Below the pieces are notes generated by a model, which saw only the letters and a list, made by a program, of their open reading frames with translations, ran no database searches and had not been told where the DNA came from. Position numbers and translations under genes: made by a program. From assembly GCA_947375105.1 (NCBI GenBank), contig CANCET010000002.1, forward strand, positions 10,471 through 74,470: a stretch of DNA of 64,000 bases, in the 5' to 3' direction. Of the stretch, positions 4,228 through 48,402 are shown piece by piece (positions within the stretch are counted from its first letter, which is position 1; each line of letters begins with the position of its first letter). This DNA comes from Sphingomonadaceae bacterium. GTDB lineage: Bacteria; Pseudomonadota; Alphaproteobacteria; Sphingomonadales; Sphingomonadaceae.

Positions 4228-5406
4228 TCAATAGCTCTTGGGCAGGCCGAGCACTTTCTCGGCAATGAAGCACATGATCAGCTGCTCGGTGATTGGCGCG
4301 AGGCGGGTCAGCGCGCTTTCCCGGTAGAGCCGCTCGACGTGGTACTCCTTGGCATAGCCAAAGCCGCCATGGGTGGCGACCGCCTGCCACGCTGCATCAT
4401 GGCAAGCGCGCGCGGCGAGGAACTTGCACGCATTGGCTTCGGCCCCGCAGGGCAGGCCCTGGTCATAAAGGCGCGCAGCCTTTTCGACCATCAGCCAGGC
4501 GCTCTCCAGATACATCCACTTTTCCGCAAGCGGGTGCTGGATACCCTGGTTCATGCCGATCGGCCGATCAAACACCACGCGTTCCTTCGCATAGTTCACG
4601 CCCCGCCGCAGCGCATCGCGCCCGATTCCAATGGCCTCGGCGCCGATGAGGATGCGTTCGGGATTAAGGCTGTGGAGGATGTAGCCGAAGCCCTTCCCTT
4701 CCTCGCCGATGCGGTCCTCGTCAGGAATGAACAGCCCGTCGATGAAGATCGCATTCGAATCCACCGCCTTGCGGCCCATCTTGTTGATCAGTCGCACATC
4801 AATCTTGGACCGGTCGAGATCGGTGTAGAAGATCGTGATGCCATCAGTCGGCCGGGCGCAGTCCTCGAACTTGGCCGTCCGAGTCAGAAGCATGATCTTG
4901 TTCGCGACTTGGGCGGTCGAGGTCCAGACCTTCTGGCCGTGGACCACATAACCCCCCGGCACTTTCTCGGCGAACGTCTTGATCCGCGTGGTGTTTAGCC
5001 CAGCGTCGGGCTCGGTAAAGCCGAAGCAGCACTGGTCCTCGCCCGAAACGAGCCGCGGGACCCAGCGCGCCTTCTGCTCCAGTGTGCCCTCCACCACGAT
5101 GGGGTGCGGGCCGAACAGGTTGATGTGGATGGTCGAAGCCGCCGCGAACCCGCCGCCGCAAGCCGCGACCTCACTCATCATCGTCATTGCCTCGGTCACG
5201 CCGAGGCCCGAACCGCCGAATTGCTCAGGCATGGTAATGCCAAGCCAACCGCCATCGGCCATCGCGCGGTGAAATTCGCGCGGGAACTCACCGTCATCAT
5301 CGCGTGCGAGCCAATAGTCATCGCCGAACGGCGCACAGGCGGCACGAACGCCTTCGCGGATAGCCTGAAGGTCTTCCTCGGTGGGAAGCGAGCGAGCTTG
5401 GGTCAT
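4228..5406 (-). CDS. Acyl-CoA dehydrogenase
   Basis: FGFTEPDAGLN, GQKVWTS, LNPERILI, THGGFGYAKEYHVER. Confidence 0.93.
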   Translation of the reverse strand: MTQARSLPTEEDLQAIREGVRAACAPFGDDYWLARDDDGEFPREFHRAMADGGWLGITMPEQFGGSGLGVTEAMTMMSEVAACGGGFAAASTIHINLFGPHPIVVEGTLEQKARWVPRLVSGEDQCCFGFTEPDAGLNTTRIKTFAEKVPGGYVVHGQKVWTSTAQVANKIMLLTRTAKFEDCARPTDGITIFYTDLDRSKIDVRLINKMGRKAVDSNAIFIDGLFIPDEDRIGEEGKGFGYILHSLNPERILIGAEAIGIGRDALRRGVNYAKERVVFDRPIGMNQGIQHPLAEKWMYLESAWLMVEKAARLYDQGLPCGAEANACKFLAARACHDAAWQAVATHGGFGYAKEYHVERLYRESALTRLAPITEQLIMCFIAEKVLGLPKSY

Positions 5407-6278
5407 GCGGTTTCTCCGACGGCTGCCAGCGTCTTAAGCGCGGCCTTGAGGTGCGGGATATCGAACATCTTGCCGTCGATCCCGAGCGTACCGGCGTCGG
5501 GATTGGCGGCGAATGCGTCCACGATCCGGCGGGCATGCGCGACCTCCTCGTCTGAGGGGGTGAAGCAGCGGTTGATCGTGGCGACCTGATCAGGATGGAT
5601 CGCGATACGGCCCAAGAACCCGTCGCGACGGGCCCGGCGGCAATCGGCCTCAAGCCCCGCCCCGTCGCGAAAATCAGCATAAAGCGTATCGACCGGCATC
5701 ACTCCGGCCGACGCCGAGGCGAACAGGCACAGAGAGCGCGCAAAGCGATAGGGCTCGGTCCACTGCCCATCCGGTTCCTTGTTGTCCGTCGCCCCGATGG
5801 CGGCCGCAAGGTCTTCCGCGCCCCACGTCAGGCCAATCAGGCGCGGATGCGGCGGGGTATAACTGCCGAGCGCAAACATCGCCTGCGGGGTCTCAGTGGC
5901 GACGACCATGATCTTGACCGTACCGGGCGCCATTCCGGCGGCGGCCTCCAGCGGATCGATCATCCCTGCAATCGTCGCGATATCGTGCGCACCATTGGCC
6001 TTGGGCACAAGAATGCCAGCAAGTCCCGGGCGCACCACTGCGGCGAGATCATCGGAGGTAAGACTGGTATCTAGGGGATTGACCCGCACGAACAAGCTGG
6101 CCTCGACATCGTCTGCCTCGCACAGCCACCCCGCCACGAGATCACGTGCAACGGCTTTCATCGACGGCGCAACCGCATCCTCCAAATCGAGGATCAGCAC
6201 ATCCGCGCCAGCCGTGCGCCCTTTTGCGAACTTGCGCTCGCTGTCTCCGGGCACGAATAGAAGCGAGCGCAACCTCAT
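5403..6278 (-). CDS. CitE-family acyl-CoA lyase (citramalyl-/malyl-/HMG-CoA lyase-like)
   Basis: RSLLFVPG, ILDLEDAV, FVRVN, GAEDL, IHPDQV, DGKMFDIPH; start trimmed to MRLRSLL. Confidence 0.9.
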   Translation of the reverse strand: MRLRSLLFVPGDSERKFAKGRTAGADVLILDLEDAVAPSMKAVARDLVAGWLCEADDVEASLFVRVNPLDTSLTSDDLAAVVRPGLAGILVPKANGAHDIATIAGMIDPLEAAAGMAPGTVKIMVVATETPQAMFALGSYTPPHPRLIGLTWGAEDLAAAIGATDNKEPDGQWTEPYRFARSLCLFASASAGVMPVDTLYADFRDGAGLEADCRRARRDGFLGRIAIHPDQVATINRCFTPSDEEVAHARRIVDAFAANPDAGTLGIDGKMFDIPHLKAALKTLAAVGETA

Positions 6279-6727
6279 GCCGGCTTCTTCATCATCAGCG
6301 CGTTGCGCACTGTGCGGCATACCACTTCATTGCGCTGGTTAAGCCCGATGTGTTCGAAGGTGACGATGCCCTGCGTGGGCCGCGATTTGCTCTCCCTAAG
6401 CTCCAGCACCTTCGTTTCAGCACGGAGCGTATCGCCCGAGAAGACAGGCTTGGGGAAGGTCGTATCGGTCATCCCGAGATTGCCTACGGTGGTGCCCATC
6501 GTGGTGTCCTGCACGCTCAGCCCAATGACCAGCCCGAGCGTGAAGATCGAGTTCATCAGCGGCTGGCCAAACTCGGTGCCTTCGCAATAGGCGTGATCGA
6601 TATGGATCTGAGCCGGATTGTAGGTCAGCGAGGAAAACAGGCTGTTCTCATAATCGAGCACAGTCTTGCGGACTTCGTGCCGGAACACCTGCCCAACGCT
6701 AAATTCGTCAAACCAAAGGCCCGCCAT
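6275..6727 (-). CDS. MaoC-family dehydratase (single hot-dog, itaconyl-CoA hydratase-like)
   Basis: GLWFDEFSVG, TYNPAQIHID, FPKPVFSGDTL; overlaps the CitE gene start. Confidence 0.85.
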   Translation of the reverse strand: MAGLWFDEFSVGQVFRHEVRKTVLDYENSLFSSLTYNPAQIHIDHAYCEGTEFGQPLMNSIFTLGLVIGLSVQDTTMGTTVGNLGMTDTTFPKPVFSGDTLRAETKVLELRESKSRPTQGIVTFEHIGLNQRNEVVCRTVRNALMMKKPA

Positions 6728-6740
6728 TACAATATCCTTC

Positions 6741-7940
6741 TCAGTTCAGCCGGCCAAGGATCGCGACGGCGGCCACGCTGTTGAACGGCGAACCGCCAAG
6801 GTTGTGCGTGAGGCCGAAATCGACCTTATCCCGCTGGCGGTCGCCTGCCCGGCCCTGAAGCTGCGTATAGACCTCATAGGCCATGCGCAGGCCCGAAGCG
6901 CCAACTGGATGGCCAAAGCACTTGAGCCCGCCATCGAGTTGGCACGGAATTGCGCCGCCGCGATCAAAACGCCCGTCGAGAATGTCGGTCGGCGCGCGGC
7001 CTTCGTCCGACAGGCCGAGGTCCTCCATGGTCACCAGTTCGGTGATCGAGAAGCAGTCATGCACTTCGGTCATGTCGAGTTCGGCGCGCGGGTCACGGAT
7101 ACCGGCTTCGGCATAGGCGCGCGCGGCGGCGGCGCGGGTATTGGGCACCGTGGCCCCATCCCATGCGCCGAACTGCATTTCCCAGCCATTGCTCGCCGAA
7201 AGCTGGATCGCCTTGATCGTGACCGGGTCAGCCTTGCCGAGCGCGCGCGCGATCTCGGGTGTGGTGACGATAGCCGCCGCCGCGCCGTCCGAAACCCCGC
7301 AGCAATCGAACAGGCCGAGCGGATCGGCGATCAGCGGCGCGTTTAGGATCTTGTCCATGTCGACCGTGCCGCGCAGGTGCGCTTTGGGCGACAGCGCACC
7401 GTTCTGGTGGCTCTTCCACGAAACATGCGCCATCGCACGTTTGAGATCGCCCGGCGCGATGCCGTGCCGCGCGGCATAGGCACCAGCCAGCTGCGCAAAA
7501 GTCCCCGGAGCCGAACCATAAGGCATCCACAGGTCATTCTGAACGCCCTTGGTGCGCAGCGGCAGCCCACCGTAACCGGTGTCCTTTAGTTTCTCGACGC
7601 CAATCGCCAGCGCGATATCCACTGCGCCCGAGGCGACGGCGTAAGCCGCACCGCGCAGCGCCTCGGTGCCGGTGGCGCACATGTTTTCGACGCGGGTCAC
7701 CGGCACCTTGTCCAGTCGCAGTGCATGGGCTGCCGGGAGTGCACTGTTGCCGACATTGATATCATCGAGCGCATTTCCGACCCAGGCGGCTTCGATGCGC
7801 GCGCGCTCGATCCCGGCATCGGCCAGCGCTTCGAGAAACGCCTCGACCATCAACCCGTCCGCACCCACATCCCAGCGCTCGCCAAACCGCGTGCAGCCCA
7901 TGCCGACAATGGCAACCTTGTCGCGAATTCCCGTGGCCAT
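6741..7940 (-). CDS. SCP2-type thiolase
   Basis: RVENMCATG (catalytic Cys), EVHDCF, GHPVGASG, THNLGG. Confidence 0.9.
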   Translation of the reverse strand: MATGIRDKVAIVGMGCTRFGERWDVGADGLMVEAFLEALADAGIERARIEAAWVGNALDDINVGNSALPAAHALRLDKVPVTRVENMCATGTEALRGAAYAVASGAVDIALAIGVEKLKDTGYGGLPLRTKGVQNDLWMPYGSAPGTFAQLAGAYAARHGIAPGDLKRAMAHVSWKSHQNGALSPKAHLRGTVDMDKILNAPLIADPLGLFDCCGVSDGAAAAIVTTPEIARALGKADPVTIKAIQLSASNGWEMQFGAWDGATVPNTRAAAARAYAEAGIRDPRAELDMTEVHDCFSITELVTMEDLGLSDEGRAPTDILDGRFDRGGAIPCQLDGGLKCFGHPVGASGLRMAYEVYTQLQGRAGDRQRDKVDFGLTHNLGGSPFNSVAAVAILGRLN

Positions 7941-9382
7941 CAGGCTTCTCCCAGCACGGGCCGCACCAGCGGGGCCGCTTTCCAGAAGTAGGTGCGAAAG
8001 CCGAGCCGGCGGTTCTGCGCCTTGATGCGCAGCCGCATCCGCACCCGGTCTCCCACGCGAAAGCCATCGGCTGGGCGATTGACCATTTCCATCAAGACGC
8101 GGGCACCGTTTTCGAATTGGACAAGGCCGAAGTCGAAAGGCGGATCTGGGCTGAAGTTGAGCCGGTCAGCTGTGATCGAAACGATCGTCGCTTCAAGATC
8201 GGCCAGCCGCACGTCCTCCATCTTTTCGACCTCAGACAGCGCCGGATTGACCGGGAAGGCACTTTTAGGAAACTGCACGTTGCCTGCGCTGTCGCGCCCG
8301 CCGACGAAGCCCACCATGTCGCGCCCTACGCGTTCGAGCACGGTGGCTTGCGCCTTCTGCTCGAATTCGGCGCGCATGCCCCAGTCAAGCTCGAGCGAGC
8401 CGGTCAGGCTGAGGAAGCGCGAGTAGCTCACGAGGACCTGCCCTTCCTTGAGCGCCGCCACCATGGCGCTCGCCCCCGGAACCGGGCTAGTCACCTCGAA
8501 CACCATGGCATCGGCGCCGCTGCCGAAGCCGACGAGTAGCACAAAGTCACCAACTTCTGCCGTGTCGAGCGCGAGACCGAGCCCATAGAGGGCGTGGGCC
8601 ACGCCCAGATCGCCGGCCATTTCGGAAACCGCTTCACAATGATTGGGTGCCTTGCTGCCCAAAGCCTTTGCTACGGCCCGCCAGCATGCGCTGACGGGTT
8701 CATGCACGGCGGCATGGGCGAGTTGCGCTGGCGCGATGCCCGCGGCCGCGCAGGCTGCGCGCACCACCGGTGTCAGCACTTCGGCAACTGCCGCATCGCG
8801 CACGAAGCGCTCTTCGTAGGCGTAGGAGAACGGGTGGTCGCGCGACGCGTAACGGTCGATGAGGTCATAGGACAGGCTGGCATGGCCGATGAGGCGCGCT
8901 GGCGCATGCGGCCCGGTTCGCACCGCCGCCGCGCCGTCGCCAAAGGCGAGCTGTGCCGCGCTGCCTGGCTGGGTGGGCCGTTGCTCTCCGGCGGTCACGA
9001 TCTCGCTGCGCGCACCGAGCAGAGCGTCGAGCAGGGCGGATGTGGCTCCGCGCCGCGAGTTTCCGGCATCGCTGGTGCGCACAGTACGGGGCAAGGCAAG
9101 CGCATCGAGCGCCATCCCGCTTTGCGCGCGATCGGTGAAATAAGCTGAAGTCGAGGCAAACCGGAGCGCCTCTGGCGCGCTTCGGCAACAGAGCGGGCGG
9201 GCCGCTTCCACTGCCATGGTCAGCGCATCCTCATCCCAATCTGCAACGGCGCGCGTGCCCGTTCGCGGCATCGGCAGGCCGGACCAGGCCAGTTCGCGGG
9301 CCACCGCCTTTCGGTCTAGCCGCAGCAACGGGATATAGCCGCCGAGCGCGGCAATACCGAACGATTGCGCTAGCCCTGACAC
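7940..9382 (-). CDS. HMG-CoA-synthase-like domain fused to a C-terminal DUF35/OB-fold domain (probable non-catalytic thiolase partner)
   Basis: N-terminal GGYIPLLRL..EDALTMAVEAA (HMGS/FabH fold); C-terminal PFDFGLVQFENGARV..YFWKAAP (DUF35 OB-fold); 1-bp overlap with the thiolase gene. Confidence 0.8.
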   Translation of the reverse strand: MSGLAQSFGIAALGGYIPLLRLDRKAVARELAWSGLPMPRTGTRAVADWDEDALTMAVEAARPLCCRSAPEALRFASTSAYFTDRAQSGMALDALALPRTVRTSDAGNSRRGATSALLDALLGARSEIVTAGEQRPTQPGSAAQLAFGDGAAAVRTGPHAPARLIGHASLSYDLIDRYASRDHPFSYAYEERFVRDAAVAEVLTPVVRAACAAAGIAPAQLAHAAVHEPVSACWRAVAKALGSKAPNHCEAVSEMAGDLGVAHALYGLGLALDTAEVGDFVLLVGFGSGADAMVFEVTSPVPGASAMVAALKEGQVLVSYSRFLSLTGSLELDWGMRAEFEQKAQATVLERVGRDMVGFVGGRDSAGNVQFPKSAFPVNPALSEVEKMEDVRLADLEATIVSITADRLNFSPDPPFDFGLVQFENGARVLMEMVNRPADGFRVGDRVRMRLRIKAQNRRLGFRTYFWKAAPLVRPVLGEA

Positions 9383-9447
9383 CCGCTTCTCCTCGATCCA
9401 ATACTCTGCCTTATCGCTCCGAGATGGCGGTTTTCTTCCACTCGTGC

Positions 9448-9482
9448 TTGACAGTCATGAATCATCTAGTAAACACCTTAAC
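9448..9482 (+). promoter_or_regulatory. Putative sigma70 promoter (TTGACA-N16-TAAACA) with imperfect inverted repeat GTAAA-CACC-TTAAC over the -10 (possible MarR site)
   Basis: TTGACA 9448-9453, TAAACA 9470-9475, inverted repeat 9469-9482 in the divergent intergenic region. Confidence 0.45.
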
Positions 9483-9539
9483 ATTGTCTGGCAAGAGCAA
9501 TTGGCCGCAAGGCCAGACGGGACCGACACGGAGAGGACG

Positions 9540-9659
9540 ATGACCATTTTCGCCGACTACGCGCATGCAGGCCTGTCCGCCGTGGTCGCTGAAGGTCAGA
9601 ACTTTGCGGGGCACGGGCCTGCTTCCAACAACCAATTCCTGCGCCTGAAGGCTGCCTGA
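9540..9659 (+). CDS. Small 39-aa ORF (MTIFADYAHAGLSAVVAEGQNFAGHGPASNNQFLRLKAA), function unknown
   Basis: SD-like GGAGAGG just upstream, mostly G/C-ending codons, TGATG overlap with the next gene. Confidence 0.5.
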   Translation: MTIFADYAHAGLSAVVAEGQNFAGHGPASNNQFLRLKAA

Positions 9660-10822
9660 TGATTGAACGCTCCCTCTTCCAGCCCGAGCATGAGATGTGG
9701 CGCCAGACGGTCCGTCACTTCGTTGAGAAGGAAATCGTCCCGTTCCACGAGCAGTGGGAAAAAGACGGGATCGTGCCACGTGAGTTGTGGCTCAAGGCAG
9801 GCGAGGCCGGCATGCTGTGCTGCACCGTGCCCGAAGAATACGGCGGTCTTGGGCTCGACTATCTGTTCGATGTGGTCGTGTTCGAGGAACTTTGGCGCGT
9901 GGGTGCCAGCGGCCCGGGTTTCCTGATCCATGCGGATCTGGTCGCCACCTATATCCTCAGCTTCGGCAGCGAAGAGCAGAAGCGCCACTGGCTGCCCAAG
10001 ATGGTGCGCGGCGAGGCGATCGGCTCGCTCGGCATGACCGAGCCGCACGCTGGCAGCGACCTCAAGGCGATCCGCACCAAGGCCGAGCGCGATGGCAACC
10101 ACTTCGTCATCAATGGGCAGAAAGTGTTCATTTCAAACGGCCAGATGTGCGACGTGCTGGTACTGGCGACCAAGACAGATACCGCCGCCGGCGCCAAGGG
10201 CGTGACGCTGTTTCTCGTCGATGCTTCGTTGCCCGGCTTTAATCGGGGCAAAAATCTCGACAAGCTGGGGATGAAGGCACAAGACACCTCGGAGCTTTTC
10301 TTCGACAACCTGCGCGTTGATGCCGATGCGATGCTGGGCGAGGAAGGCAAAGGCTTCTCGCTGATGATGACCAAGCTGGCGCAGGAACGGCTGGCGCAGG
10401 CGGTCCGCTCAGCCACTGTGATCGAGACGGTGATCGACTACACGGTCGAATACACCAGCGAGCGCAAGGCCTTCGACCAGACCATCGCAGACTTCCAGAA
10501 CACCCAGTTCGTGCTCGCCGACCTGAAAGCCCGCAGCGTGATGGCACGCGTGTTTACCGACAAGTGCATCGAGCTGTTCATGCGCGGCGAGCTCAATCCC
10601 GTCGATGCCGCCATGGCCAAGATGGTCACGTCAGAGCTGCACTGCGAGACCGTCGACAAGTGCCTGCAATTGTTCGGCGGCTGGGGCTATATGTGGGAGT
10701 ATCCCATTGCGCGGGCCTATGCCGATGCGCGGATCGTCAAGATCGCCGGTGGTTCCATCGAGGTAATGAAGACCATCATCTCGCGCGACCTGTTCAAGGG
10801 CAAGTTGAGTGCAAAAAGGTGA
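9659..10822 (+). CDS. Acyl-CoA dehydrogenase (LCAD-like)
   Basis: GMTEPHAGSDL, NGQKVFISNG, LAQERL, QLFGGWGYMWEYPIAR. Confidence 0.93.
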   Translation: MIERSLFQPEHEMWRQTVRHFVEKEIVPFHEQWEKDGIVPRELWLKAGEAGMLCCTVPEEYGGLGLDYLFDVVVFEELWRVGASGPGFLIHADLVATYILSFGSEEQKRHWLPKMVRGEAIGSLGMTEPHAGSDLKAIRTKAERDGNHFVINGQKVFISNGQMCDVLVLATKTDTAAGAKGVTLFLVDASLPGFNRGKNLDKLGMKAQDTSELFFDNLRVDADAMLGEEGKGFSLMMTKLAQERLAQAVRSATVIETVIDYTVEYTSERKAFDQTIADFQNTQFVLADLKARSVMARVFTDKCIELFMRGELNPVDAAMAKMVTSELHCETVDKCLQLFGGWGYMWEYPIARAYADARIVKIAGGSIEVMKTIISRDLFKGKLSAKR

Positions 10823-11416: not shown

Positions 11417-12178
11417 GTGAGAGGACTGGACGGAAAAGTCGCCATTGTCACCGGCGGCGGACAGGGCATTGGCCGCGCCTTGACGCTGCGGCTTGCGGCG
11501 GAAGGCTGCAAGGTCGCAATCTTCGACCTCAGCATGGCGGCGGGCGAAGAGACTGCGCAGCTGGCGGGTGATGGTGCCACCATCCGCACCTGGCAGCTTG
11601 ATGTCAGCGATCTGCCTGCCGTCCAGGCCGCTGTCGAGGCGGTCGAAGTCGAACTGGGCCCGATTTGGACGCTGGTCAACAACGCCGGCTGGGACCGCCC
11701 CGCCCCTTTCCTCAAAACCACGCCCGAATTCTGGGACAAAGTGATCGCGATCAACCTCACCGGCAATCTCAACACCCATTTTGCCGTGGCTGGCAAGATG
11801 GTCGAGCATGGCGGCGGCCGCATCATCAACATCGCCTCGGATGCCGCCAAGGTCGGCACCGCGATGGAAGCAGTCTATTCGGCGTGCAAGGGCGGCCTCA
11901 TCAGCTTCACCAAGTCGATCGCCCGCGAACTCGCGCGCAAGAACGTACTGTGCAACGCCGTGTGCCCGGGGCCGACCAACACCCCGATGATGACCGAAGT
12001 CGCCGGCACCGGCCCCGAGGCCGAGAAGTGGAAGGCCGCGCTAGAACGCGGCATTCCGCTTGGCCGCATGGGCGAGCCTGAGGACTACGCCGGGATCGTC
12101 GCGTTGCTCGCTTCCGATGACGGCGCCTACATTACCGGCCAGGCCATTTCGGTCTCCGGCGGCATGAACATGGTCTGA
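11417..12178 (+). CDS. badH: 2-hydroxycyclohexanecarboxyl-CoA dehydrogenase-like SDR (BadH-like)
   Basis: VNNAGWD, IINIASDAAKVG..EAVYSACKGG, VCPGPTNT, SVSGG match R. palustris BadH as recalled; GTG start after GGAGG. Confidence 0.72.
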   Translation: MRGLDGKVAIVTGGGQGIGRALTLRLAAEGCKVAIFDLSMAAGEETAQLAGDGATIRTWQLDVSDLPAVQAAVEAVEVELGPIWTLVNNAGWDRPAPFLKTTPEFWDKVIAINLTGNLNTHFAVAGKMVEHGGGRIINIASDAAKVGTAMEAVYSACKGGLISFTKSIARELARKNVLCNAVCPGPTNTPMMTEVAGTGPEAEKWKAALERGIPLGRMGEPEDYAGIVALLASDDGAYITGQAISVSGGMNMV

Positions 12179-12188: not shown

Positions 12189-12617
12189 ATGCCGCCGATC
12201 GGTCCGCCTCATCTAGCCGGAAACTGGGCCTGCCATGTGCCCCCCGGCGACGGGACCTGGACGATCGGCGATGTATGGATTGATCGCCAGAGCGGAAGGC
12301 TGGCCCTGTTCGTAACCACAGCACACTGCAACCCGTTTGACGTGATGCACGGCGGCGCACTGGCCACCTTTGCCGATTACCAATGCGCGGCCTTGCGTGA
12401 CTATTCCGATGACGGTGCAGACCATACGCCGACTGTCACGCTGTCGGTCGACTATCTCGCCCCGGTCCCCCGGGGTCGGTGGCTGCTGGCGGAGGTGACG
12501 CTCCTGCGCGGGACTGGCAGCCTGATTTTCACGCAGGCGGTCATGACCGTCGATGGCACCAAGGTTGGCCGGTCGAACGCAATTTATCGCAGTTTCAAAA
12601 GGAAGGATGCGCCATGA
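12189..12617 (+). CDS. PaaI-family hot-dog thioesterase
   Basis: NPFDVMHGGALATFAD, TVTLSVDYLAP. Confidence 0.85.
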   Translation: MPPIGPPHLAGNWACHVPPGDGTWTIGDVWIDRQSGRLALFVTTAHCNPFDVMHGGALATFADYQCAALRDYSDDGADHTPTVTLSVDYLAPVPRGRWLLAEVTLLRGTGSLIFTQAVMTVDGTKVGRSNAIYRSFKRKDAP

Positions 12618-13405
12618 GCACCCCCGAATTCGAAGACATTCTCTATGAAGTGCGCGGCCGCGCCGCATGGGTCACGATCAACCGTCCCAAGCTTTACAAC
12701 GCTTTTCGCGCGCAGACGATCGAGGAATTGATCGCCGCATTCAAGCTTGCCGCCGATGATCGGGGTGTGTCGTCGATTGTGCTGACCGGCGCGGGCGACA
12801 AGGCATTCTGCACCGGCGGTGACCAGAGCGCGAAGGACGGCCAGTATGACGGGCGCGGCATTGTCGGACTGCCGATCGACGAATTCCAGTCGATCATTCG
12901 CGACATTCCCAAGCCCGTGATCGCGCGCGTCAACGGCTTCGCGATTGGCGGCGGCAATGTGTTTGCCACGCTCTGCGACCTCACCATCGCGGCCGACACG
13001 GCCAAGTTCGGCCAGGTCGGCCCCAAGGTCGGCTCGGTCGATGCCGGCTGGGGCACTGCATTTCTCGCCCGCCACGTAGGCGACAAGAAGGCGCGGGAGA
13101 TGTGGTTCCTGAACCTGCAGTACTCGGCGCAGGAAGCGCTCGAGATGGGCCTCGTCAACAAGGTGGTCCCTGCTGCCGAGCTCGACGCAGCGGTCGATGA
13201 GTGGACCGAGATGCTCGGCCAGCGTTCGCCTACGGCGCTGGCGCTGGCCAAGCGCAGCTTCAATGCCGACAGCGACAACATTCGCGGCATTTCGATGATG
13301 GCGCTCAATTCGGTGAAGCTGTTTTACGACACCGAAGAATCGAAGGAAGGTATGCGCGCGTTCCAGGAACGACGCACGCCGGACTTCCACAAATACGTGA
13401 AGTAG
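12614..13405 (+). CDS. badI: 2-ketocyclohexanecarboxyl-CoA hydrolase (ring-opening crotonase, BadI-like)
   Basis: FCTGGDQS..DGQYDGRGIVGLP, FGQVGPKVGSVD, RSPTALALAKRSFN, PDFHKYVK closely follow BadI as recalled; start at MSTPEFED. Confidence 0.85.
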   Translation: MSTPEFEDILYEVRGRAAWVTINRPKLYNAFRAQTIEELIAAFKLAADDRGVSSIVLTGAGDKAFCTGGDQSAKDGQYDGRGIVGLPIDEFQSIIRDIPKPVIARVNGFAIGGGNVFATLCDLTIAADTAKFGQVGPKVGSVDAGWGTAFLARHVGDKKAREMWFLNLQYSAQEALEMGLVNKVVPAAELDAAVDEWTEMLGQRSPTALALAKRSFNADSDNIRGISMMALNSVKLFYDTEESKEGMRAFQERRTPDFHKYVK

Positions 13406-13425: not shown

Positions 13426-14667
13426 ATGACGAAGCGCCTGCTGCGCCCTGGAGACCTGCCCGGCGTTCTGCCGCCGGGCGGGCTAACACTCGTCTCCTCC
13501 TGCTCGGCGGAATCCGATCTGCTGATCGCCGAGGTTGCCGCCGCCGGAAGAGCACTGGGCGCGATGACGTTCTCGGGCATCTTTGTCCCTGGACTCAACA
13601 AGGCGGTCTGGCGCGCAGGGCATGACGCGCGCGTCCTGACATTTTTCCAGACGTCGGAACTGCGCCGCGAAGGCGCGCGAAGCCAGTTCCTGCCGCTGTG
13701 CTATCAAGACATCTTGGCGCTCTATCGCCAGCAGAAGCCTGCCGCAGCGCTGTTCATGTGCAGCCCGCCCGATGCCGAGGGAAATTGCAGCTTCGGCGCG
13801 GAGACCGGGTTTATCGCGGCCCTGTGGCGCGAGATTCCGGTGCGCATTGCCCACTTCAATCCGCTGATGCCCCGCACGGCGGGTGATCCCGGCATTCCAT
13901 TTGCAGAGCTGACCGGCTGGTACGAGAGCGAGCAGCCGCTGCGCACGATGGCCAGCGGCGAGGACGTGACAAGCCTCGCTATCGCCGCCCACGTCGCGCC
14001 GCTCATCCCCGATGGGGCGACGGTTCAAACCGGGCTGGGCAAGATACCTGATGCCGTGCTCCGCGCGCTCACGGGCCATCGCGGCCTGCGGCTCCACACG
14101 GGCCTCATCGGCGATGGTGCGCTGGAACTCGTGCGCTCGGGCGCGATGGCAGACGGCCCGTCAGCACTGGTCGGGGTCGCGATCGGCAGTACCGCGCTCT
14201 ATGACGGGCTCGGCGATCCCCATTTCCAGTTCCGCCCGGTCAGTGTCACCCACGATCCGGCAACGCTCGGCGCAATGGAGCGGTTCGTCACGATCAATTC
14301 GGCGATGGAAGTCGATCTTTACGGACAGGTCCATGCAGAAGCATCGGCGCGGGGGTTCCTGTCGGGACCCGGCGGCGGGGGCGACTATGCGCGCGGCGCA
14401 AGGGCCGCCGGCGGCCTGAGGATCATCGCGCTGCCGTCGGAGGCAGGCACTGCCAGCCGCATTGTTCCGGCAGGCGGAGGGCACGGTCCGGTCTCGCTCT
14501 CGCGTTTCGATGTCGATGTGGTCGTAACCGAACATGGCGCGGCAGACTTGCGCAATCTGGGGCACGAGGCGCGCGCGCAGGCGCTGATCGGCATCGCCGC
14601 ACCCCATACCCGCGAGACTTTGGCCCGGCATTGGCGCGATGCCATGCAGGCCCTGCAGGAGAGTTGA
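13426..14667 (+). CDS. Acetyl-CoA hydrolase/transferase family protein (class I CoA-transferase fold; catalytic Glu apparently replaced by Gly)
   Basis: DGATVQTGLGKIPDAVL, INSAMEVDLYGQ, DVDVVVTEHG; HTGL where HSEM is expected. Confidence 0.85.
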   Translation: MTKRLLRPGDLPGVLPPGGLTLVSSCSAESDLLIAEVAAAGRALGAMTFSGIFVPGLNKAVWRAGHDARVLTFFQTSELRREGARSQFLPLCYQDILALYRQQKPAAALFMCSPPDAEGNCSFGAETGFIAALWREIPVRIAHFNPLMPRTAGDPGIPFAELTGWYESEQPLRTMASGEDVTSLAIAAHVAPLIPDGATVQTGLGKIPDAVLRALTGHRGLRLHTGLIGDGALELVRSGAMADGPSALVGVAIGSTALYDGLGDPHFQFRPVSVTHDPATLGAMERFVTINSAMEVDLYGQVHAEASARGFLSGPGGGGDYARGARAAGGLRIIALPSEAGTASRIVPAGGGHGPVSLSRFDVDVVVTEHGAADLRNLGHEARAQALIGIAAPHTRETLARHWRDAMQALQES

Positions 14668-14669: not shown

Positions 14670-15599
14670 GTGGCACAGCACAAAGTCATCATCAGCTGCG
14701 CGGTTACGGGCTCGATCCATACTCCGTCGATGTCACCGCACCTGCCTGTCACCGCGCAGGAGATCGCCGAGGCGGCGCTGGGTGCCGCCGAAGCCGGCGC
14801 CGCCATTGTCCACCTCCACGCCCGCGATCCGCAGGATGGTCATCCGGTCCACACACCCGAGGACTTCGAACCGTTCCTGCGCGTGATCAAGCAGAGCAGC
14901 AACGTAGTCGTGAATCTCACCACCGGCGCCTCGCCCTATATGCCGGTCGAATACCGCGTGAAGCCGGCCGAAGTGTGGAGGCCCGAAGTCGCCAGCCTCA
15001 ACATGGGCTCGATGAATTTTGGCCTCTTCCCGATGCTGAAGCGCTTCAAGGAGTTCCAGCACGCGTGGGAGCCGGAAATGCTGGAGGGGAGCCACGATCT
15101 GGTTTTCCGCAACAGCTTCAAAGACATCCGCTATGCGCTCGACACGCTGAACGCCACCGGCACGCGCTATGAGTTCGAGTGCTACGACACCAGCCACCTC
15201 TACAATCTGCACTACTTCTGGAGCGAAGGGCTCGTGCAAGCCCCGCTGTTCATCCAGACCTGTTTCGGCCTGCTAGGCGGGATCGGCGCGCATCCGGATG
15301 ACGTGATGCACATGAAGCGGACAGCGGACCGGCTGTTTGGCGACAACTACCGCTGGTCTGTCTTGGCTGCGGGGGCGAACCAGATGAAAGTCGCCGCCAT
15401 GGCTGCGGGCATGGGCGGCCATGTGCGCGTCGGGCTGGAGGACAGCCTGTGGATCGGGCGCGGGCAACTGGCGCGGAGCAATGCTGAACAGGTTACCCGC
15501 GTGCGCCAGATCATCGAGGGGCTCGGACTAGAGGTCGCCACGCCGGATGATGCCCGCGCGATCCTTTCCCTGAAGGGCGCCGATGCCGTCGGCTTCTGA
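14670..15599 (+). CDS. BKACE / beta-keto acid cleavage enzyme (DUF849), copy 1
   Basis: IISCAVTG, IVHLHARDP, SLNMGSMNF, EFECYD, HVRVGLEDSL; GTG start. Confidence 0.9.
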   Translation: MAQHKVIISCAVTGSIHTPSMSPHLPVTAQEIAEAALGAAEAGAAIVHLHARDPQDGHPVHTPEDFEPFLRVIKQSSNVVVNLTTGASPYMPVEYRVKPAEVWRPEVASLNMGSMNFGLFPMLKRFKEFQHAWEPEMLEGSHDLVFRNSFKDIRYALDTLNATGTRYEFECYDTSHLYNLHYFWSEGLVQAPLFIQTCFGLLGGIGAHPDDVMHMKRTADRLFGDNYRWSVLAAGANQMKVAAMAAGMGGHVRVGLEDSLWIGRGQLARSNAEQVTRVRQIIEGLGLEVATPDDARAILSLKGADAVGF

Positions 15600-17004
15600 A
15601 GCGTTCCTGCCGCTGGCGGACCTGTTTGCGCGGGTTCCGCCCGAACGCGAGGCGCTGGTCCACGGAACCGAGCGCTGGACGTTTGGCCAGCTCGATGCGC
15701 GCAGTGCGCAGCTGGCGGCATGGCTCATCGGTAAAGGTGTGGAGCCCCACGATCTGGTGGCCTTCCAGCTTCCGAACGGGCCTGACTTTCTCGCGCTCAC
15801 TTTCGCCATCTACCGCTGCGGCGCGACTCCGGCGCCGCTCTCGCATCGCCTTCCCCCCACAGAGCACGATGCCATCATCGGCGTGATGCAGCCGCGCTGC
15901 GCCATCGATGCCGCGATGCTGCCCGCGCCCTCGTCCCACCATGCCCCAGTGGAGCCGTGCCCGGTTGCGGCGTCGTGGAAGGCCTGCACCAGCGGCGGCA
16001 GCACCGGTACGCCCAAGGTCATCGTCGATGGCCGCCCTGCCGGTTTTCCCGCTGGCACCGCCTTCATCGGAATCCCCGCCGACGGCCGGGTCATTGTACC
16101 CGGGCCGCTTTACCACAACGCCCCGTTCAGCGCGGCGGTGTTCGCACTGTGGAATGGCTCCACCGTCCACACCATGGAGAGGTTCGACGCGGTGGCGGCG
16201 CTTGATATCATCGCGCGAGAGGGGATTGGCTGGGCGCTGATGGTGCCGACCATGATGCACCGGATCATGGCCCTGCCTGAAACCGCGCGGCCAGCTGCGC
16301 GCTATGCCGCTTGGAAGCAGGTTGTGCACACCGCCGCCCCGATGGCGCCTTGGCTCAAATCGGCGTGGATCGACTGGCTCGGCCCGGATCATGTCTGGGA
16401 AGTCTATGGCGCTACCGAGGGTCTTGCCCGCTGCTGGATCGGCGGGCGCGAGTGGCTCGAACGTCCCGGTTCAGTCGGCCGCCCCATCGGCGGTGCCCGT
16501 ATCCGCATCCTGCGCCCCGATGGCAGCGACGCGGCACCGGGCGAGCAAGGCGAGGTCTATGCTATGCCGCCCGGCGGCCCCGGATCGACTTACCGCTACA
16601 TCGGGGCCGAGCGCCGTGCGACCGCCGAGGGCTGGGAAACCGTCGGCGATATCGGTTGGCTCGATGCGGACGGCTTTCTCTTCCTGGCAGACCGCAAGGA
16701 TGATCTGATCATCAGCGGCGGCATCAACATCTGGCCCGCCGAAGTCGAGGCCGCCATCCTGCGTCACCCAGCCGTGCGCAGCTGCGCGGTCTTCGGCAAG
16801 TCCGATCCCGATCTGGGTGCGCGTGTCCACGCCGTCATCGAAACCGACTCGGCGCTGTCAGCGAGTGACCTCTCGTCCTTCCTCGCCGACCACCTCGCCA
16901 AGTCCAAACACCCGCGCTCGATAGACGTTACCACCCAGCGTGTCCGCGACGATGCAGGCAAGTTCCGCAAACCGCGCACGCCGATACCGGAGCCCACACC
17001 ATGA
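15583..17004 (+). CDS. Acid--CoA ligase (AMP-binding)
   Basis: TSGGSTGTPK, GPLYHNAP, YGATEG, TVGDIG, DLIISGGINIWP. Confidence 0.88.
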   Translation: MPSASEAFLPLADLFARVPPEREALVHGTERWTFGQLDARSAQLAAWLIGKGVEPHDLVAFQLPNGPDFLALTFAIYRCGATPAPLSHRLPPTEHDAIIGVMQPRCAIDAAMLPAPSSHHAPVEPCPVAASWKACTSGGSTGTPKVIVDGRPAGFPAGTAFIGIPADGRVIVPGPLYHNAPFSAAVFALWNGSTVHTMERFDAVAALDIIAREGIGWALMVPTMMHRIMALPETARPAARYAAWKQVVHTAAPMAPWLKSAWIDWLGPDHVWEVYGATEGLARCWIGGREWLERPGSVGRPIGGARIRILRPDGSDAAPGEQGEVYAMPPGGPGSTYRYIGAERRATAEGWETVGDIGWLDADGFLFLADRKDDLIISGGINIWPAEVEAAILRHPAVRSCAVFGKSDPDLGARVHAVIETDSALSASDLSSFLADHLAKSKHPRSIDVTTQRVRDDAGKFRKPRTPIPEPTP

Positions 17005-18182
17005 CCCCGCCCACTCTCACGCAGTTCCGTGCCGAGATGCAGGACAATGGCCTCGTGCACCTCGTGTTCGATTGCCCCGACAGATCGATGAACGTGTTTT
17101 CGAACAAGGCTATCCACGAGCTCGGTAAATTTGCCGAATGGCTGCACCGTGCCGATGTAAGAGGCGTGCTCGTGCGATCAGGCAAGGCCACCGGCTTTTG
17201 TGCGGGCGCAGACCTTACCGAACTCGGCGTGGCTTACGACATGATCGTCGCTGCCCCCGCTGCTGACCGGTTCGACATGGCGTTCAACCACTTCTTCCCG
17301 CTCAGCCATGCCATCCGGAGGCTGGAGACAGCGGGTAAGCCCGTCGCCGCAGCCATCGCGGGCTTAGCACTTGGCGGTGGCTGCGAACTGGCGCTCGGGG
17401 CGCACTACCGCGTCGTCACCAGCAATCGCCGGGCCATGCTCGGCCTGCCCGAATGCGCGGTGGGGCTCCTACCTGGTGCTGGGGGAACCCAGCGTATGCC
17501 GCGGCTCGTCGGCGTCGCGCTCGGCCTCGAGGTTCTGCTGTTGGGCCGCACGCTTTCTGGCGAGGAAGCGCGTGAGGCCGGCCTTGTCCATGCCGTGGTA
17601 GCCGAGGGTGAGGAGATCGCTGCGGCGGAGGAGTGGCTCCTTTCGGACCGCGCGCATGCGGTGCAGCCGTGGGACCACGCCGCGCAGCCGCTCGCCCATG
17701 TCGCCTACGCGGATGCCATCGCCGCGCATCGCACGCGCGAAATGGCGCGGATGCTTGGCCACGAACCTGCCCCGCTCGCGATCCTCGATTGCGTCGAGTT
17801 TGGGCTGATGCAGCCAATCGATGGTGCCATCCGCGCTGAAATGTCGGTTTTTGCCCACTTGATCCAGCGTCCCGAGCCGCGAAATATGATCCGAACCATG
17901 TTTCTGGGCAAGCAGGCCTATGACAAGGCCAGCCGGGAAGGCACGCTTTCGCCGGCGGTGATCGTTGCCAGCGAAGCGATCACGCGGCTTGTCGTCTCGG
18001 CCCTGCCCGAGCATCCGGATCTGACGACGGCCCTTGGATCATTGGCGCCTGAAATCGGCCAGATCGCGGCGAAACTCTCCCCGGTCGAGATGCTTCAACT
18101 GGACCATGCGGTAACGCTGAGCGGTGCAATCCCGGCCTATGCGGGCGGTGCAAGCGGCGCACTTGAACGGGCTGCGGCGTAG
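17001..18182 (+). CDS. Enoyl-CoA hydratase resembling the FadJ/FadB N-terminal domain, without the NAD-binding dehydrogenase domain
   Basis: FCAGADL, GGGCELAL and GLPE (both Glu), PGAGGTQRMPRLVG, RNMIRTMF; no GxGxxG afterwards. Confidence 0.8.
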   Translation: MTPPTLTQFRAEMQDNGLVHLVFDCPDRSMNVFSNKAIHELGKFAEWLHRADVRGVLVRSGKATGFCAGADLTELGVAYDMIVAAPAADRFDMAFNHFFPLSHAIRRLETAGKPVAAAIAGLALGGGCELALGAHYRVVTSNRRAMLGLPECAVGLLPGAGGTQRMPRLVGVALGLEVLLLGRTLSGEEAREAGLVHAVVAEGEEIAAAEEWLLSDRAHAVQPWDHAAQPLAHVAYADAIAAHRTREMARMLGHEPAPLAILDCVEFGLMQPIDGAIRAEMSVFAHLIQRPEPRNMIRTMFLGKQAYDKASREGTLSPAVIVASEAITRLVVSALPEHPDLTTALGSLAPEIGQIAAKLSPVEMLQLDHAVTLSGAIPAYAGGASGALERAAA

Positions 18183-38705: not shown

Positions 38706-39502
38706 CCCTCAGTCCCTCCGCGCGCCTGCTGCGCGGCTTTGCCGTCGATTTCCTGACCTGCCACAATGTGGCGGCTGTCGAGACGATCATGGAGCCCGAC
38801 TATGCGCTCAGCATCGGCGGATTCCTGCTCGCTGGCCGCGACGACACCTATTTGCCGGCAACCGCTGCGCAGCTCGATCAGTTTCCCGGGCTCTGCGTAA
38901 CGGTGCACGATACCGTGATCGGCCCCGACGCTATTGCGATGCGGTTTACCGAACACGGCGCGTCGATCCGCCATGGCGGACGGCTTTCCACTTGGGGCGG
39001 GGTCACGCTGTTCCGCATCCAGAACGGCAGATTGCATCGCGGCTGGGCTGAAGAGGATTACTACGCCCGCAAGCGCCAGCTCGCCGAGAGCACCTGCGAC
39101 ATGATTCGCGCCCCGCATCCTGCCCCTTGGGACGCGCCTTGCGAAGCCCCGGATGAGGCGGTGGAAGCCCTTGCCGAAGCGTGGCTGACGGACCCCGCCA
39201 ACTGGGCCGACAGGACCGTGATCGACGAGATCAGCGCCGAAGGTCCGCGCTTTGCCGATCTGGTGGCAATCGAAGCCATCGCCATCGACCAACTGTTTTC
39301 CGCAGGGCCGCGCGGGGCGTTCCACCTTACTTGCACCGGCACCTATCGCGGCGGATTCGACGATATCGATCCGGCGCAAATCGGCCAGCCGGTCACGCTG
39401 GCGCTGGCTGGCATCTTCGACTCCGAGGGAGACCAGATTGTGCATGTGCAAGTTACTGCGGACCGGCTCGGCCTCAACCGCACGCTGATGCCGCCGCGAT
39501 GA
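38702..39502 (+). CDS. Tandem SnoaL/NTF2-fold protein (cyclase or epoxide hydrolase-like)
   Basis: Two repeats of a SnoaL-like strand pattern (FPGLCVTVHD..MRFTEHG..FRIQNGRL; IDQLFSAG..TGTYRG..IFDSEGDQI); 4-bp overlaps on both sides. Confidence 0.6.
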   Translation: MTLSPSARLLRGFAVDFLTCHNVAAVETIMEPDYALSIGGFLLAGRDDTYLPATAAQLDQFPGLCVTVHDTVIGPDAIAMRFTEHGASIRHGGRLSTWGGVTLFRIQNGRLHRGWAEEDYYARKRQLAESTCDMIRAPHPAPWDAPCEAPDEAVEALAEAWLTDPANWADRTVIDEISAEGPRFADLVAIEAIAIDQLFSAGPRGAFHLTCTGTYRGGFDDIDPAQIGQPVTLALAGIFDSEGDQIVHVQVTADRLGLNRTLMPPR

Positions 39503-40425
39503 GCAAGGTCATCATCACTTGCGCCGTCACCGGCGGCGCGCATACCCCGACCATGTCGGACGCCCTGCCCTGCACGCCGTCCGAGATTGCCGAGCAGTCG
39601 ATCGCGGCGGCCGAAGCGGGTGCAGCCATTCTACACCTTCACGCGCGCAATCCCGCCAACGGACAGCCCACCGGCGATCCGGCGATCTACGCGCAGTTCC
39701 TGTCGGTCATCAAGCAACAGACGGATGCCGTGGTGAACATCACCACGGGCGGTTCCGCGACCATGCCGCTGGCCGAGCGGCTGAAGGCGGCAGTGCAGTT
39801 CAAGCCCGAGATGTGCTCGCTCAACATGGGCTCGATGAACTTCGCGTTCTTCGGCGCAGCGGCGCGTATCAACACTTGGAAGCACGATTGGGAAGAGCCC
39901 TATGTCACGGGCTCGGACGACTTCATCTTCCGCAACACCTTCCGCGATATCGCAACGATCCTTGAGGTGATGGGCGAGGCTGGCACCAAGTTCGAGCACG
40001 AGTGCTACGATGTCAGCCACCTCTACAACCTGGCGCATTTCGTTGATCGGGGCCTGGTGAAGCCGCCATTCTTCATCCAGATGATTTTCGGCATTCTGGG
40101 CGGCATCGGCCCCGATCTCGAAAACCTGATGTTCATGAAATCGACTGCCGACCGCCTGTTTGGCCGCGACAATTTCCAGTGGTCGGTGCTCGCGGCCGGG
40201 CGTCACCAGATGCCGTTCCTCACACAAGCCGCGCTGATGGGCGGCAATGTCCGTGTCGGGCTGGAGGACAGCCTGTTCATCGAACGCGGCGTGCTTGCCG
40301 CCTCGAACGCGCAGCAGGTGGAAAAGATCGTGCGGATCATCCGCGAAATGGGCCATGAACCGGCGACCCCAACCGAAGCCCGCGCGATGCTGGGCCTCAA
40401 AGGCGGCGACAGGGTGGAGTTCTAG
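39499..40425 (+). CDS. BKACE / beta-keto acid cleavage enzyme (DUF849), copy 2
   Basis: IITCAVTG, ILHLHARNP, SLNMGSMNF, EHECYD, NVRVGLEDSL. Confidence 0.9.
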   Translation: MSKVIITCAVTGGAHTPTMSDALPCTPSEIAEQSIAAAEAGAAILHLHARNPANGQPTGDPAIYAQFLSVIKQQTDAVVNITTGGSATMPLAERLKAAVQFKPEMCSLNMGSMNFAFFGAAARINTWKHDWEEPYVTGSDDFIFRNTFRDIATILEVMGEAGTKFEHECYDVSHLYNLAHFVDRGLVKPPFFIQMIFGILGGIGPDLENLMFMKSTADRLFGRDNFQWSVLAAGRHQMPFLTQAALMGGNVRVGLEDSLFIERGVLAASNAQQVEKIVRIIREMGHEPATPTEARAMLGLKGGDRVEF

Positions 40426-46033: not shown

Positions 46034-46904
46034 TGCCTGGGGTCGCTGGGGCGAAGCCGACGAGGTCGGCGCGCTCAATCTCGTCGGCACGAGCGAAGTG
46101 CTCGGCGCTACCGGCCTCGTCCGGCAGGGCCGGGTCGTGAGCCTCGCACAGCCGCTGTCGAAGAAGACCCCGGTTCCCAGCAACCGCACCGGCCTCCTCC
46201 ATTTCATGGACCGCGACGGCGGCGACTATGCGGCCGGAGCACGCATTTCCAACGGCTTCCAATTTGCCGACGACAGCGTGGTCATGCCGCTCCACATCGG
46301 CACGCATATCGACGCGCTGTGCCATGTGTGGACTGAGGATCAGCTCTACAACGGCCATCCCGGATCGGGCACGAACAGCACGCACGGCGCGAAAAAGTGC
46401 GGCGTGGAAAAGCTGCCGCCCATCGTCACGCGCGGGTTGCTCCTTGATGTGGCGGCGCTGCATGAAGCGCCTCTGCCATTCGGCTATGCGATCGGGGTGG
46501 ACGAAATGAAAGAGGCCGCCAGCCGCGCAGGAGTGACTCCCGCGATTGGCGATGCCGTTCTGATCCGAACGGGATGGCAGGAAAATCAGGCGGGCAAGCC
46601 TGCACAGACGGTCGATTTCAACGAGGAGCCGGGCATAGACGTTGAGGCTGCGCTCTGGCTTGCCGAGGCCGGCGTTTCGCTCGTCGGCGCGGACAACTAT
46701 GCGATCGAGGCCATGCCCTTTCCCGCAGGCACAACCTTCCCCGTCCATCAGCGCCTGATCCGCGACTTCGGCATTCCGCTGCTTGAAGGCCTCGTGCTGC
46801 AGGACTTCGCCGCGCTCGGTGTGCCCGAGTTCCTGTTCGTCGCCGCGCCGCTGCCGATCGTCGGTGGAACCGGCAGCCCGATCACCCCGCTGGCGATTTA
46901 TTGA
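46023..46904 (+). CDS. Cyclase-family metal-dependent hydrolase, copy 2
   Basis: WGRWGEADEVGALN, LHIGTHIDALCH, GADNYAIE, LLEGLVL. Confidence 0.87.
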   Translation: MSRDAWGRWGEADEVGALNLVGTSEVLGATGLVRQGRVVSLAQPLSKKTPVPSNRTGLLHFMDRDGGDYAAGARISNGFQFADDSVVMPLHIGTHIDALCHVWTEDQLYNGHPGSGTNSTHGAKKCGVEKLPPIVTRGLLLDVAALHEAPLPFGYAIGVDEMKEAASRAGVTPAIGDAVLIRTGWQENQAGKPAQTVDFNEEPGIDVEAALWLAEAGVSLVGADNYAIEAMPFPAGTTFPVHQRLIRDFGIPLLEGLVLQDFAALGVPEFLFVAAPLPIVGGTGSPITPLAIY

Positions 46905-46908
46905 TCCC

Positions 46909-47934
46909 ATGACCGTGGACGCCCATGAGCCGGATAGGGCCGCACGGCAGGTCGCCGATGGGCTGGCGCAGCTTGTGCGCCATGCGATCCCCTCGGCGCA
47001 GGATATCGCCTTCACGGGCCTCACCCGCTCCGCCGGCGGCCTCAGTCGGGAGAACTGGTCGTTTGATGCCAGCTGGCACGATGCGGAAGGAGGCCACACA
47101 CATCGGCTGATGCTGATGCGCGATGCCAAAGGCACTCTGCTGAAGACCGAACGCAGCCGCGAGTTCGATGTGCTGAGGGCACTGCAAGGCAGCCCCGTGG
47201 CGGCACCGGCGGTGTTCTGGATGGATCCCGATGGGCAGTTCCTCGGCGCGCCCTCGCTGATCATGGAGCGCGTTTCAGGCCGCTGCGACTATATGGTGCT
47301 GAATGGCGCACAGCCATTGAATGAGCGGCTGGAACTCGCACATGCCTTTCTGCAACTGCTGACCGATATTCAGACGATCGACTGGCAGACACGCGGCCTC
47401 GGGCCCAGCCTCGGCGTACCTGAAGGCTCGCCGGCCCAGATCGTGCTCGATGAGTGGGAGACGGAGTATCGCCGTGTGCAACTAGAGCCCCATCCGGAGC
47501 TCGATTATGTTTTGGCGTGGATGCGCCGCGCGGCCCCGCAAGCGCAAGCCATTGTTCTCGTCCACGGCGATTTCAAACCGGGCAACGCGCTGATCGAGGG
47601 CACACGGATCACCGCCAAGCTCGATTGGGAGACCGCGCATCTGGGTGATCCGCTCGAAGACCTCGGCTGGATCACCAATCCCGTGCGGCGGCGCGAACAC
47701 CAGATCCCCGGTCATTGGGAACGTGCGCAGATCGTCGAAGCCTATACCCGCCTGACCGGCCGCGCAGTGGGCGACGCTGCTCTGACATGGTGGAACGTGT
47801 TCTCGTGCTGGAAGCTGGCGGTGATCCAGCTGACGGCCGTCAACGAGTTCGTCTCGGGCCGCTACAACCGCGTGTTCCAGACTCCCTCGTGGCTCTTCCG
47901 CCCCATGCTCCAGATGATGGAGCGCGCGACATGA
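46909..47934 (+). CDS. APH-fold phosphotransferase (LvaA / ACAD10-11 kinase-like), copy 2
   Basis: AGGLSRENW, REFDVL, HGDFKPGN, LDWE, GDPLEDLGW. Confidence 0.88.
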   Translation: MTVDAHEPDRAARQVADGLAQLVRHAIPSAQDIAFTGLTRSAGGLSRENWSFDASWHDAEGGHTHRLMLMRDAKGTLLKTERSREFDVLRALQGSPVAAPAVFWMDPDGQFLGAPSLIMERVSGRCDYMVLNGAQPLNERLELAHAFLQLLTDIQTIDWQTRGLGPSLGVPEGSPAQIVLDEWETEYRRVQLEPHPELDYVLAWMRRAAPQAQAIVLVHGDFKPGNALIEGTRITAKLDWETAHLGDPLEDLGWITNPVRRREHQIPGHWERAQIVEAYTRLTGRAVGDAALTWWNVFSCWKLAVIQLTAVNEFVSGRYNRVFQTPSWLFRPMLQMMERAT

Positions 47935-48398: not shown

Positions 48399-48402
48399 AC
48401 CC

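Follow-up and report, generated by a model that had tools for sequence, protein, structure and literature searches.

Introduction

The closest characterized relative of the protein described here is ThnP (N47_E41340), a Cat1 protein from culture N47 that functions as an intramolecular CoA-transferase in anaerobic naphthalene degradation (PMC11659651). ThnP carries a glycine, G238, at the catalytic position and does not use acetyl-CoA or succinyl-CoA as a donor; an internal anhydride has been proposed as its intermediate, and the authors allow that a displaced glutamate, E269, could act instead (PMC11659651). A Glu-to-Gly Cat1 enzyme is, in ThnP, already known. In the class I enzyme AarC, Asn347 orients the catalytic Glu and provides the internal oxyanion hole, Gly388 provides the external oxyanion hole, and a stabilizing effect on the CoA thiolate is proposed for Val270 (PMC4876117).

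The closest described gene clusters are those of monoterpene degradation. The cluster of Azoarcus KH32C has been named as closest to the MrcDEF ring-cleavage enzymes of Castellaniella defragrans, in whose genomic island an acetyl-CoA hydrolase/transferase is listed after a thiolase, with no function given; CDM25300 was not detected in the phellandrene proteome, and methacrylyl-CoA is the proposed end product (PMC4109377).

Here we describe a Cat1 homologue (copy 1) encoded in a 64,000-nucleotide stretch of DNA (the window) from a Sphingomonadaceae bacterium. The branch in which copy 1 falls is large and has received little study; its one tested member, ThnP, is probably of common origin with copy 1. 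The literature that we searched contained no account of the Gly/His signature reported below, of the size of this branch, of a member lacking E269, or of a connection with monoterpene-type ring cleavage and a racemase role that may go with it, and the NetSyn paper on BKACE does not describe a cluster of the copy 1 type.

Results

Copy 1 is encoded at 13426-14667 (+) by an open reading frame of 413 amino acids, in whose translation residues 222-231 read RLHTGLIGDG. A phmmer search of the PDB placed the HTG of this motif on the HTE of four 4-hydroxybutyrate CoA-transferases (E 1e-56 to 2e-49), so that Gly226 (codon GGC, 14101-14103, +) occupies the catalytic-Glu column (E294 in AarC, E238 in AbfT, E249 in RipA; G238 in ThnP). 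The AlphaFold model of copy 1 (pLDDT 91.9, built with 106 homologues) matched AbfT (3gk7) with a Z score of 43.8 over 408 residues and a TM score of 0.88, and RipA with a Z score of 42.7. By this two-domain CoA-transferase fold and by sequence homology, including a PF13336 match (E 3e-36), copy 1 is a Glu-less member of the Cat1/AbfT structural family; its NCBIfam equivalog scores all fall far below their cut-offs. The preliminary description of this DNA had aligned the Gly to the catalytic Glu by eye. The PDB alignment, the structure matches to AbfT and RipA, and column mapping to AarC (Glu294 to Gly226) agree with that assignment.

The Gly was present in 121 of 121 close homologues; close relatives are from Novosphingobium. 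When homologues were clustered at 50% identity and the top-ranking cluster representatives aligned, Gly occupied 144 of 155 full columns and Glu occupied 9, a count biased toward the query, as this set was ranked by likeness to copy 1. All four Gly codons are in use at position 226 across 80 loci, which had been picked in part by a pattern that includes the Gly itself. Against six relatives, dN/dS was 0.10-0.21 for copy 1 versus 0.02-0.10 for badI and BKACE, and values for the cluster's ligase and hydratase were similar to those of copy 1; copy 1 also evolves faster than badI and BKACE (55% versus about 80% identity in distant loci). Copy 1 is thus intact and under purifying selection. A sequencing error or a pseudogene is ruled out by the invariance of the Gly in homologues, the use of all four codons and the low dN/dS.

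We mapped the active-site columns of copy 1 onto AarC, taking residue roles from the published work (PMC4876117). The flexible CoA/thiolate loop is kept as QTGLG (QxGhG; Gln201-Gly205; 14026-14040, +), with Leu204 at the position of AarC Val270, as is the external oxyanion hole, Gly317 (14374-14376, +), equivalent to AarC Gly388; the loop and Gly317 are conserved at 98% or above in the Gly group. Two canonical marks of class I enzymes are absent: the Glu of HxE is Gly226, and the Glu-orienting Asn (AarC N347) is His276 (14251-14253, +). The two changes co-vary. In a sample of 300 alphaproteobacterial genomes, His was present in 31 of 31 Gly proteins and Asn in 25 of 26 Glu proteins, the exception to this pairing being a small subgroup with an FFGM motif. 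The joint change at Gly226 and His276 suggests, at the level of sequence, an active site that has been rebuilt rather than one that is dead. Because the Glu is Gly and its orienting Asn is His, no glutamyl-CoA intermediate is expected at this position, and the earlier claim that canonical ping-pong transfer is impossible there holds.

By column mapping, no other Glu appears to be present in the copy 1 active site. The column of ThnP E269, the proposed substitute nucleophile, holds Val251 in copy 1 (14176-14178, +) and neither Glu nor Asp in any of the 80 loci. If the nucleophile has moved elsewhere, the one candidate left is Glu305 (14338-14340, +), which is invariant among close relatives (121 of 121 and 80 of 80) and is found in 92% of the Gly-group representatives. 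Glu305 lies within a low-confidence, probably mobile loop of the AlphaFold model, and its column is Asp or Glu in 8 of 9 Glu-bearing relatives.

To obtain a fairer count of the Gly type, we searched the 300 genomes with PF13336, a domain that begins downstream of residue 226. Not counting the source genome, this search found 57 proteins, of which 31 (from 25 families) carried Gly and 26 carried Glu. We then masked the diagnostic columns and computed a 51-protein tree, in which all 32 Gly proteins, among them a ThnP orthologue and both Gly copies of the window, formed one clade within the AbfT-like Cat1 proteins. The Glu-less clade anticipated by the preliminary description was therefore recovered in this tree, at 91/94, just under the starred threshold and in 89% of bootstrap trees, but its purity did not carry over to a wider quick tree, in which one long-branch Glu group falls within it. 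From these sequences, a single origin of the Gly proteins is likely. A large Gly subgroup (P0275-P0392) has Glu at the E269 column, and smaller groups have HS-L or FFGM at the motif. A metagenome scan with one family member (P0229) found little, and a search of one phylum centred on genome G341 returned no usable gene context of the Gly type.

The source genome also encodes an ordinary Glu copy on contig C90 and, within the window, a second, divergent Glu-less paralogue (copy 2; 49481-50761, +; Gly codon 50219-50221; start codon uncertain), identified by alignment and by its place in the tree. Copy 2 is about 35% identical to copy 1 and sits on a long branch in another Gly subclade; pairwise alignment suggests that it, too, keeps the His. 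Its gene runs into the beginning of a P450 gene and comes after a kinase/barrel cassette; in Bradyrhizobium, genes for an APH kinase and a barrel protein resembling those at 46783-49530 of the window lie directly beside an operon of the copy 1 type (L194:4891-7600). Independent decay of the two window copies is not favoured, as both fall within the Gly clade.

The copy 1 gene lies, as first described, between a badI-like gene and a BKACE gene. The former encodes a BadI/MrcE-like ring-opening hydrolase directly upstream (12614-13405, +; 66% identical to the MrcE-like protein of KH32C), and the latter a beta-keto acid cleavage enzyme directly downstream (14670-15599, +; above the NF053538 cut-off). 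BKACE substrates are free beta-keto acids. On the same strand are genes for an acyl-CoA dehydrogenase (9659-10822, 76% to KH32C), a BadH/MrcD-like dehydrogenase (11420-12178, 54% to KH32C) and an MrcF-like enoyl-CoA hydratase (17001-18182, 40% to the KH32C MrcF-like protein). The opposite strand carries a thiolase gene (6741-7940) with that of its HMG-CoA-synthase-like/OB-fold partner (7940-9382; 69% and 44% to KH32C, respectively; together 6741-9382, -), and a branch-point module (4228-6727, -) of acyl-CoA dehydrogenase (4228-5406), CitE-like lyase (5403-6320) and MaoC hydratase (6275-6727), which are 80%, 55% and 69% identical to their KH32C counterparts.

This arrangement recurs: most of the 80 loci, all from Alphaproteobacteria, share the order acyl-CoA dehydrogenase, marR, badH, badI, copy 1 gene, BKACE and hydratase, with a divergent thiolase operon. 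A CitE-like lyase is encoded within about 15 kb of the copy 1 gene in five of five distant genomes, two of these five also have a gene for a cyclohexanecarboxyl-CoA dehydrogenase of the AliB type, which scores slightly below the cut-off of its family, and a PaaI thioesterase gene is part of the cluster in some relatives. In the 300-genome sample, genes for CaiB-type transferases were found near 13 of 31 Gly genes versus 0 of 26 Glu genes, and those for CaiB, MaoC, CitE, BKACE or a mutase near 17 of 31 versus 0 of 26, counts for which the neighbour genes were picked after the loci had been inspected and in which kin are not independent.

Several further features of these neighbourhoods were observed. 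The window encodes a second BKACE at about 39500-40425 (+), above the NF053538 cut-off. The HMG-CoA-synthase-like/OB fusion (7940-9382, -) has Arg at the catalytic Cys, accompanies the thiolase in about 50 of the 80 loci and in KH32C, and is probably the equivalent of the phellandrene-induced CDM25298. A 2,4-dienoyl-CoA-reductase-like SDR (MrcC-like), present in many relatives, is missing from the corresponding spot at 9382-9659. Elsewhere, an anaerobe's Gly-type gene lies with genes for IpdAB-like subunits, thiolases, a MaoC pair and BKACE, in a setting that resembles steroid C/D-ring degradation (L159:1-13272), and two other Gly-type genes adjoin genes for B12 mutases, MaoC and an HMG-CoA-lyase-like protein (L156:6533-12971 and L090:972-7276), which again suggests branched dicarboxylyl-CoA substrates.

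The preliminary description had noted that the acetoacetate released by BKACE would normally need a CoA-transferase. Gene context speaks against this role for copy 1. The badI gene is the tighter neighbour (directly upstream in 65 of 74 loci, versus BKACE directly downstream in 49 of 69); seven loci contain badI and the copy 1 gene with BKACE absent from the flank inspected; the KH32C cluster includes an acetoacetate-CoA ligase; and the source genome has a separate two-subunit PF01144 CoA-transferase elsewhere. The BKACE-less loci, the ligase and the PF01144 pair leave acetoacetate activation unsupported as the main role.

Twelve window genes are the source genome's best matches to the pAZKH cluster of Azoarcus KH32C (40-80% identity), and the window contains the mrc-type gene set, in which the MrcD/E/F-like enzymes are accompanied by the dehydrogenase, MaoC, CitE and thiolase genes. 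The KH32C gene in the acetyl-CoA hydrolase/transferase position, which served as the orthologue representing Castellaniella CDM25300, encodes a protein of the Gly/His type and lies directly after the thiolase and partner genes. Although this protein is only 36% identical to copy 1, far below the values for its neighbours, the two share a supported subclade. No BKACE gene was found in the KH32C region that was read. By analogy with these clusters, the window cluster probably acts on terpene-type rings.

ThnP itself was reached neither by a homologue search from one family member (P0202) nor in the four gene contexts inspected, and a search for the AtuA family alone located no thn clusters. We therefore compared copy 1 with a syntenic orthologue of ThnP, from a thn-like anaerobic naphthalene cluster (L190; G550:C68:1-12980) that has an extra SDR gene between thnO and thnP. 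This orthologue shares the thn gene order, G238 and E269 with ThnP, and both its termini and those of the ThnO-like gene upstream agree with the published primers. Its identity to copy 1 is 38% over 308 aa, and the Gly, the His and Glu305 are common to both.

Discussion

The data presented here show residues, fold, clade and synteny, and from them we deduce a probable activity, substrate and stereochemistry and a probable role of His276. By analogy with ThnP and with the homologous clusters, we propose that copy 1 is probably a ThnP-type intramolecular CoA-transferase that shifts CoA from one carboxyl of a substituted glutaryl-CoA to the other via a cyclic anhydride. This proposal makes "another mechanism" or "isomerase" the best of the readings offered in the preliminary description, as the characterized relative is itself an intramolecular CoA-transferase. 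In the proposed pathway, BadH and BadI would open the ring of a 4-substituted 2-oxocyclohexanecarboxyl-CoA to give a 5-substituted pimeloyl-CoA, and one round of beta-oxidation would yield a 3-substituted glutaryl-CoA, the likely substrate of copy 1. For limonene, 3-isopropenylglutaryl-CoA and matching ring-opening intermediates have been proposed independently (PMC12583861). Copy 1 would bind the mono-CoA thioester of such a substituted dicarboxylic acid; the substrate's free carboxylate would fold into the gap where the Glu side chain is lacking and attack the thioester in the external oxyanion hole, forming a six-membered cyclic anhydride, as with the ThnP substrate, and the CoA thiolate. 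The thiolate would then attack the other carbonyl, with His276 plausibly replacing Asn for the internal oxyanion.

For a 3-substituted glutaryl-CoA, as expected from perillate-type monoterpenes, this swap would invert C3, since the position of CoA is all that distinguishes the two arms, and the enzyme would act as a racemase; either enantiomer could then reach the stereospecific dehydrogenase. With a 2-substituted glutaryl-CoA or a succinyl-CoA, the same chemistry would instead make copy 1 a regio-isomerase, as in ThnP. The dehydrogenase, MaoC hydration and the CitE-like lyase would subsequently give acetyl-CoA and a free beta-keto acid for cleavage by BKACE, which from an isopropenyl branch would yield methacrylyl-CoA; acetoacetate could pass to the PF01144 pair. 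More tentatively, we suggest that copy 1, with no protein nucleophile, may serve as an acyl-CoA racemase that admits both enantiomer series of p-menthane monoterpenes to one stereospecific pathway; in that case the Gly/His branch, which makes up about half of the "acetyl-CoA hydrolase/transferase" genes of the alphaproteobacterial sample, would consist of misannotated dicarboxylyl-CoA isomerases. On the other side, ThnP is a distant model for the swap (38% identity, other subclade), and its own mechanism is unproven since it keeps E269; the faster divergence of copy 1 relative to badI and BKACE also fits a relaxed or auxiliary role.

Transfer between two molecules in a Glu-free ternary complex, in the manner of MdcA and CitF, seems unlikely. 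An acceptor acid such as acetoacetate would occupy the Gly cavity and combine with the acyl donor in a mixed anhydride; a beta-keto acid would thereby be released for BKACE, and the acetoacetate that BKACE produces would be recycled. MdcA, of related fold, has no acidic active-site residue, and a direct anhydride is proposed for it (PMC5534430); the copy 1 model matches CitF (Z 25.7) and MdcA (Z 23.3), and BKACE, the frequent downstream neighbour, recurs near distant Gly members. However, ThnP showed no intermolecular transfer (PMC11659651), the copy 1 gene persists in loci that lack BKACE and next to a gene for an acetoacetate-CoA ligase, the source genome already has its PF01144 pair, and the enrichment of CaiB-type intermolecular transferases near Gly genes suggests a different job for the Gly proteins. 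We consider it quite improbable that copy 1 binds an acyl-CoA in order to hydrolyse it, decarboxylate it, split it by a retro-Claisen reaction or change it in some comparable way. AibA/AibB, which has Cys in place of the Glu, decarboxylates 3-methylglutaconyl-CoA (PMC7756340); the invariant His276 could serve to activate water or to protonate an enolate, and a thioesterase would feed free beta-keto acid to BKACE. Yet the only assayed member of the clade, ThnP, conserves the thioester (PMC11659651), and the cluster already includes a ring hydrolase and a lyase, with a PaaI thioesterase in some loci.

An ordinary ping-pong reaction through a relocated carboxylate is very improbable. Glu305 would be the most plausible residue, given its near-invariance and its probably mobile loop, but the acidic character of this column in Glu-bearing relatives means that it is not a compensating gain, and copy 1 has Val at the E269 column. 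Least probable of all, in our estimate, is a non-catalytic acyl-CoA-binding or scaffolding subunit. Copy 1 diverges faster than its catalytic neighbours, much like the Cys-less HMG-CoA-synthase-like partner; against this, dN/dS is similar for the cluster's ligase and hydratase, ThnP is active, and across a very diverse clade the column is almost purely Gly, with a new invariant His and with the oxyanion-hole Gly and thiolate loop kept.

The study of ThnP left a choice between a displaced E269 and a substrate-derived anhydride, and copy 1, with neither Glu, is a clean test case. The gene also offers a step that can be put to the test in the lower pathway by which cyclic monoterpenes are degraded. 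More broadly, about half of the sampled alphaproteobacterial PF13336 proteins cannot match their annotation, and the Gly226/His276 pair separates them.

In gene content, the window shares with the mrc island and KH32C the MrcD/E/F-like enzymes, two acyl-CoA dehydrogenases, MaoC, a CitE-like lyase, thiolase and partner, MarR and the acetyl-CoA hydrolase/transferase. Castellaniella and KH32C, in contrast, have an acetoacetate-CoA ligase where the window has BKACE, and the window lacks the 2,4-dienoyl-CoA reductase found in many relatives. Copy 1 resembles AbfT, RipA and AarC in its fold, CoA loop and external oxyanion-hole Gly, but differs from them in having Gly for the catalytic Glu and His for the Glu-orienting Asn. 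With AibA/AibB it shares the CoA-transferase fold and the loss of the Glu, and AibA/AibB acts on a glutaconyl-type CoA ester; that enzyme, however, is a two-subunit, Gct-type decarboxylase with Cys rather than Gly, at 15% identity. MdcA and CitF (the former family II) have a related fold and carry out transfer with no acidic nucleophile, via a substrate anhydride, but they are 14-17% identical to copy 1 and act between two molecules and on acyl-carrier proteins, whereas copy 1 is nested in Cat1; its conserved neighbours include no MdcC/CitD-type gene, and copy 1 does not belong with MdcA and CitF.

Copy 1 is closest in kind to ThnP. The two share the Cat1 fold, the Gly at the catalytic position and the QxGhG loop, and copy 1 and the ThnP orthologue share His276, Glu305 and, probably, membership of one clade. 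The gene logic of the window is likewise that of the thn operon: thiolase, CoA swap, dehydrogenase, hydratase and lyase. Copy 1 differs in its separate subclade, in Val at the E269 column and in a PG.N58 plus Tyr93 motif that is missing from the ThnP orthologue; its setting is an alphaproteobacterial badH/badI/BKACE cluster with a CitE-like lyase, whereas ThnP belongs to the thn operon with an AtuA-like lyase. Judged by sequence, copy 1 appears best filed with enzymes of the ThnP kind rather than with the canonical class I transferases.
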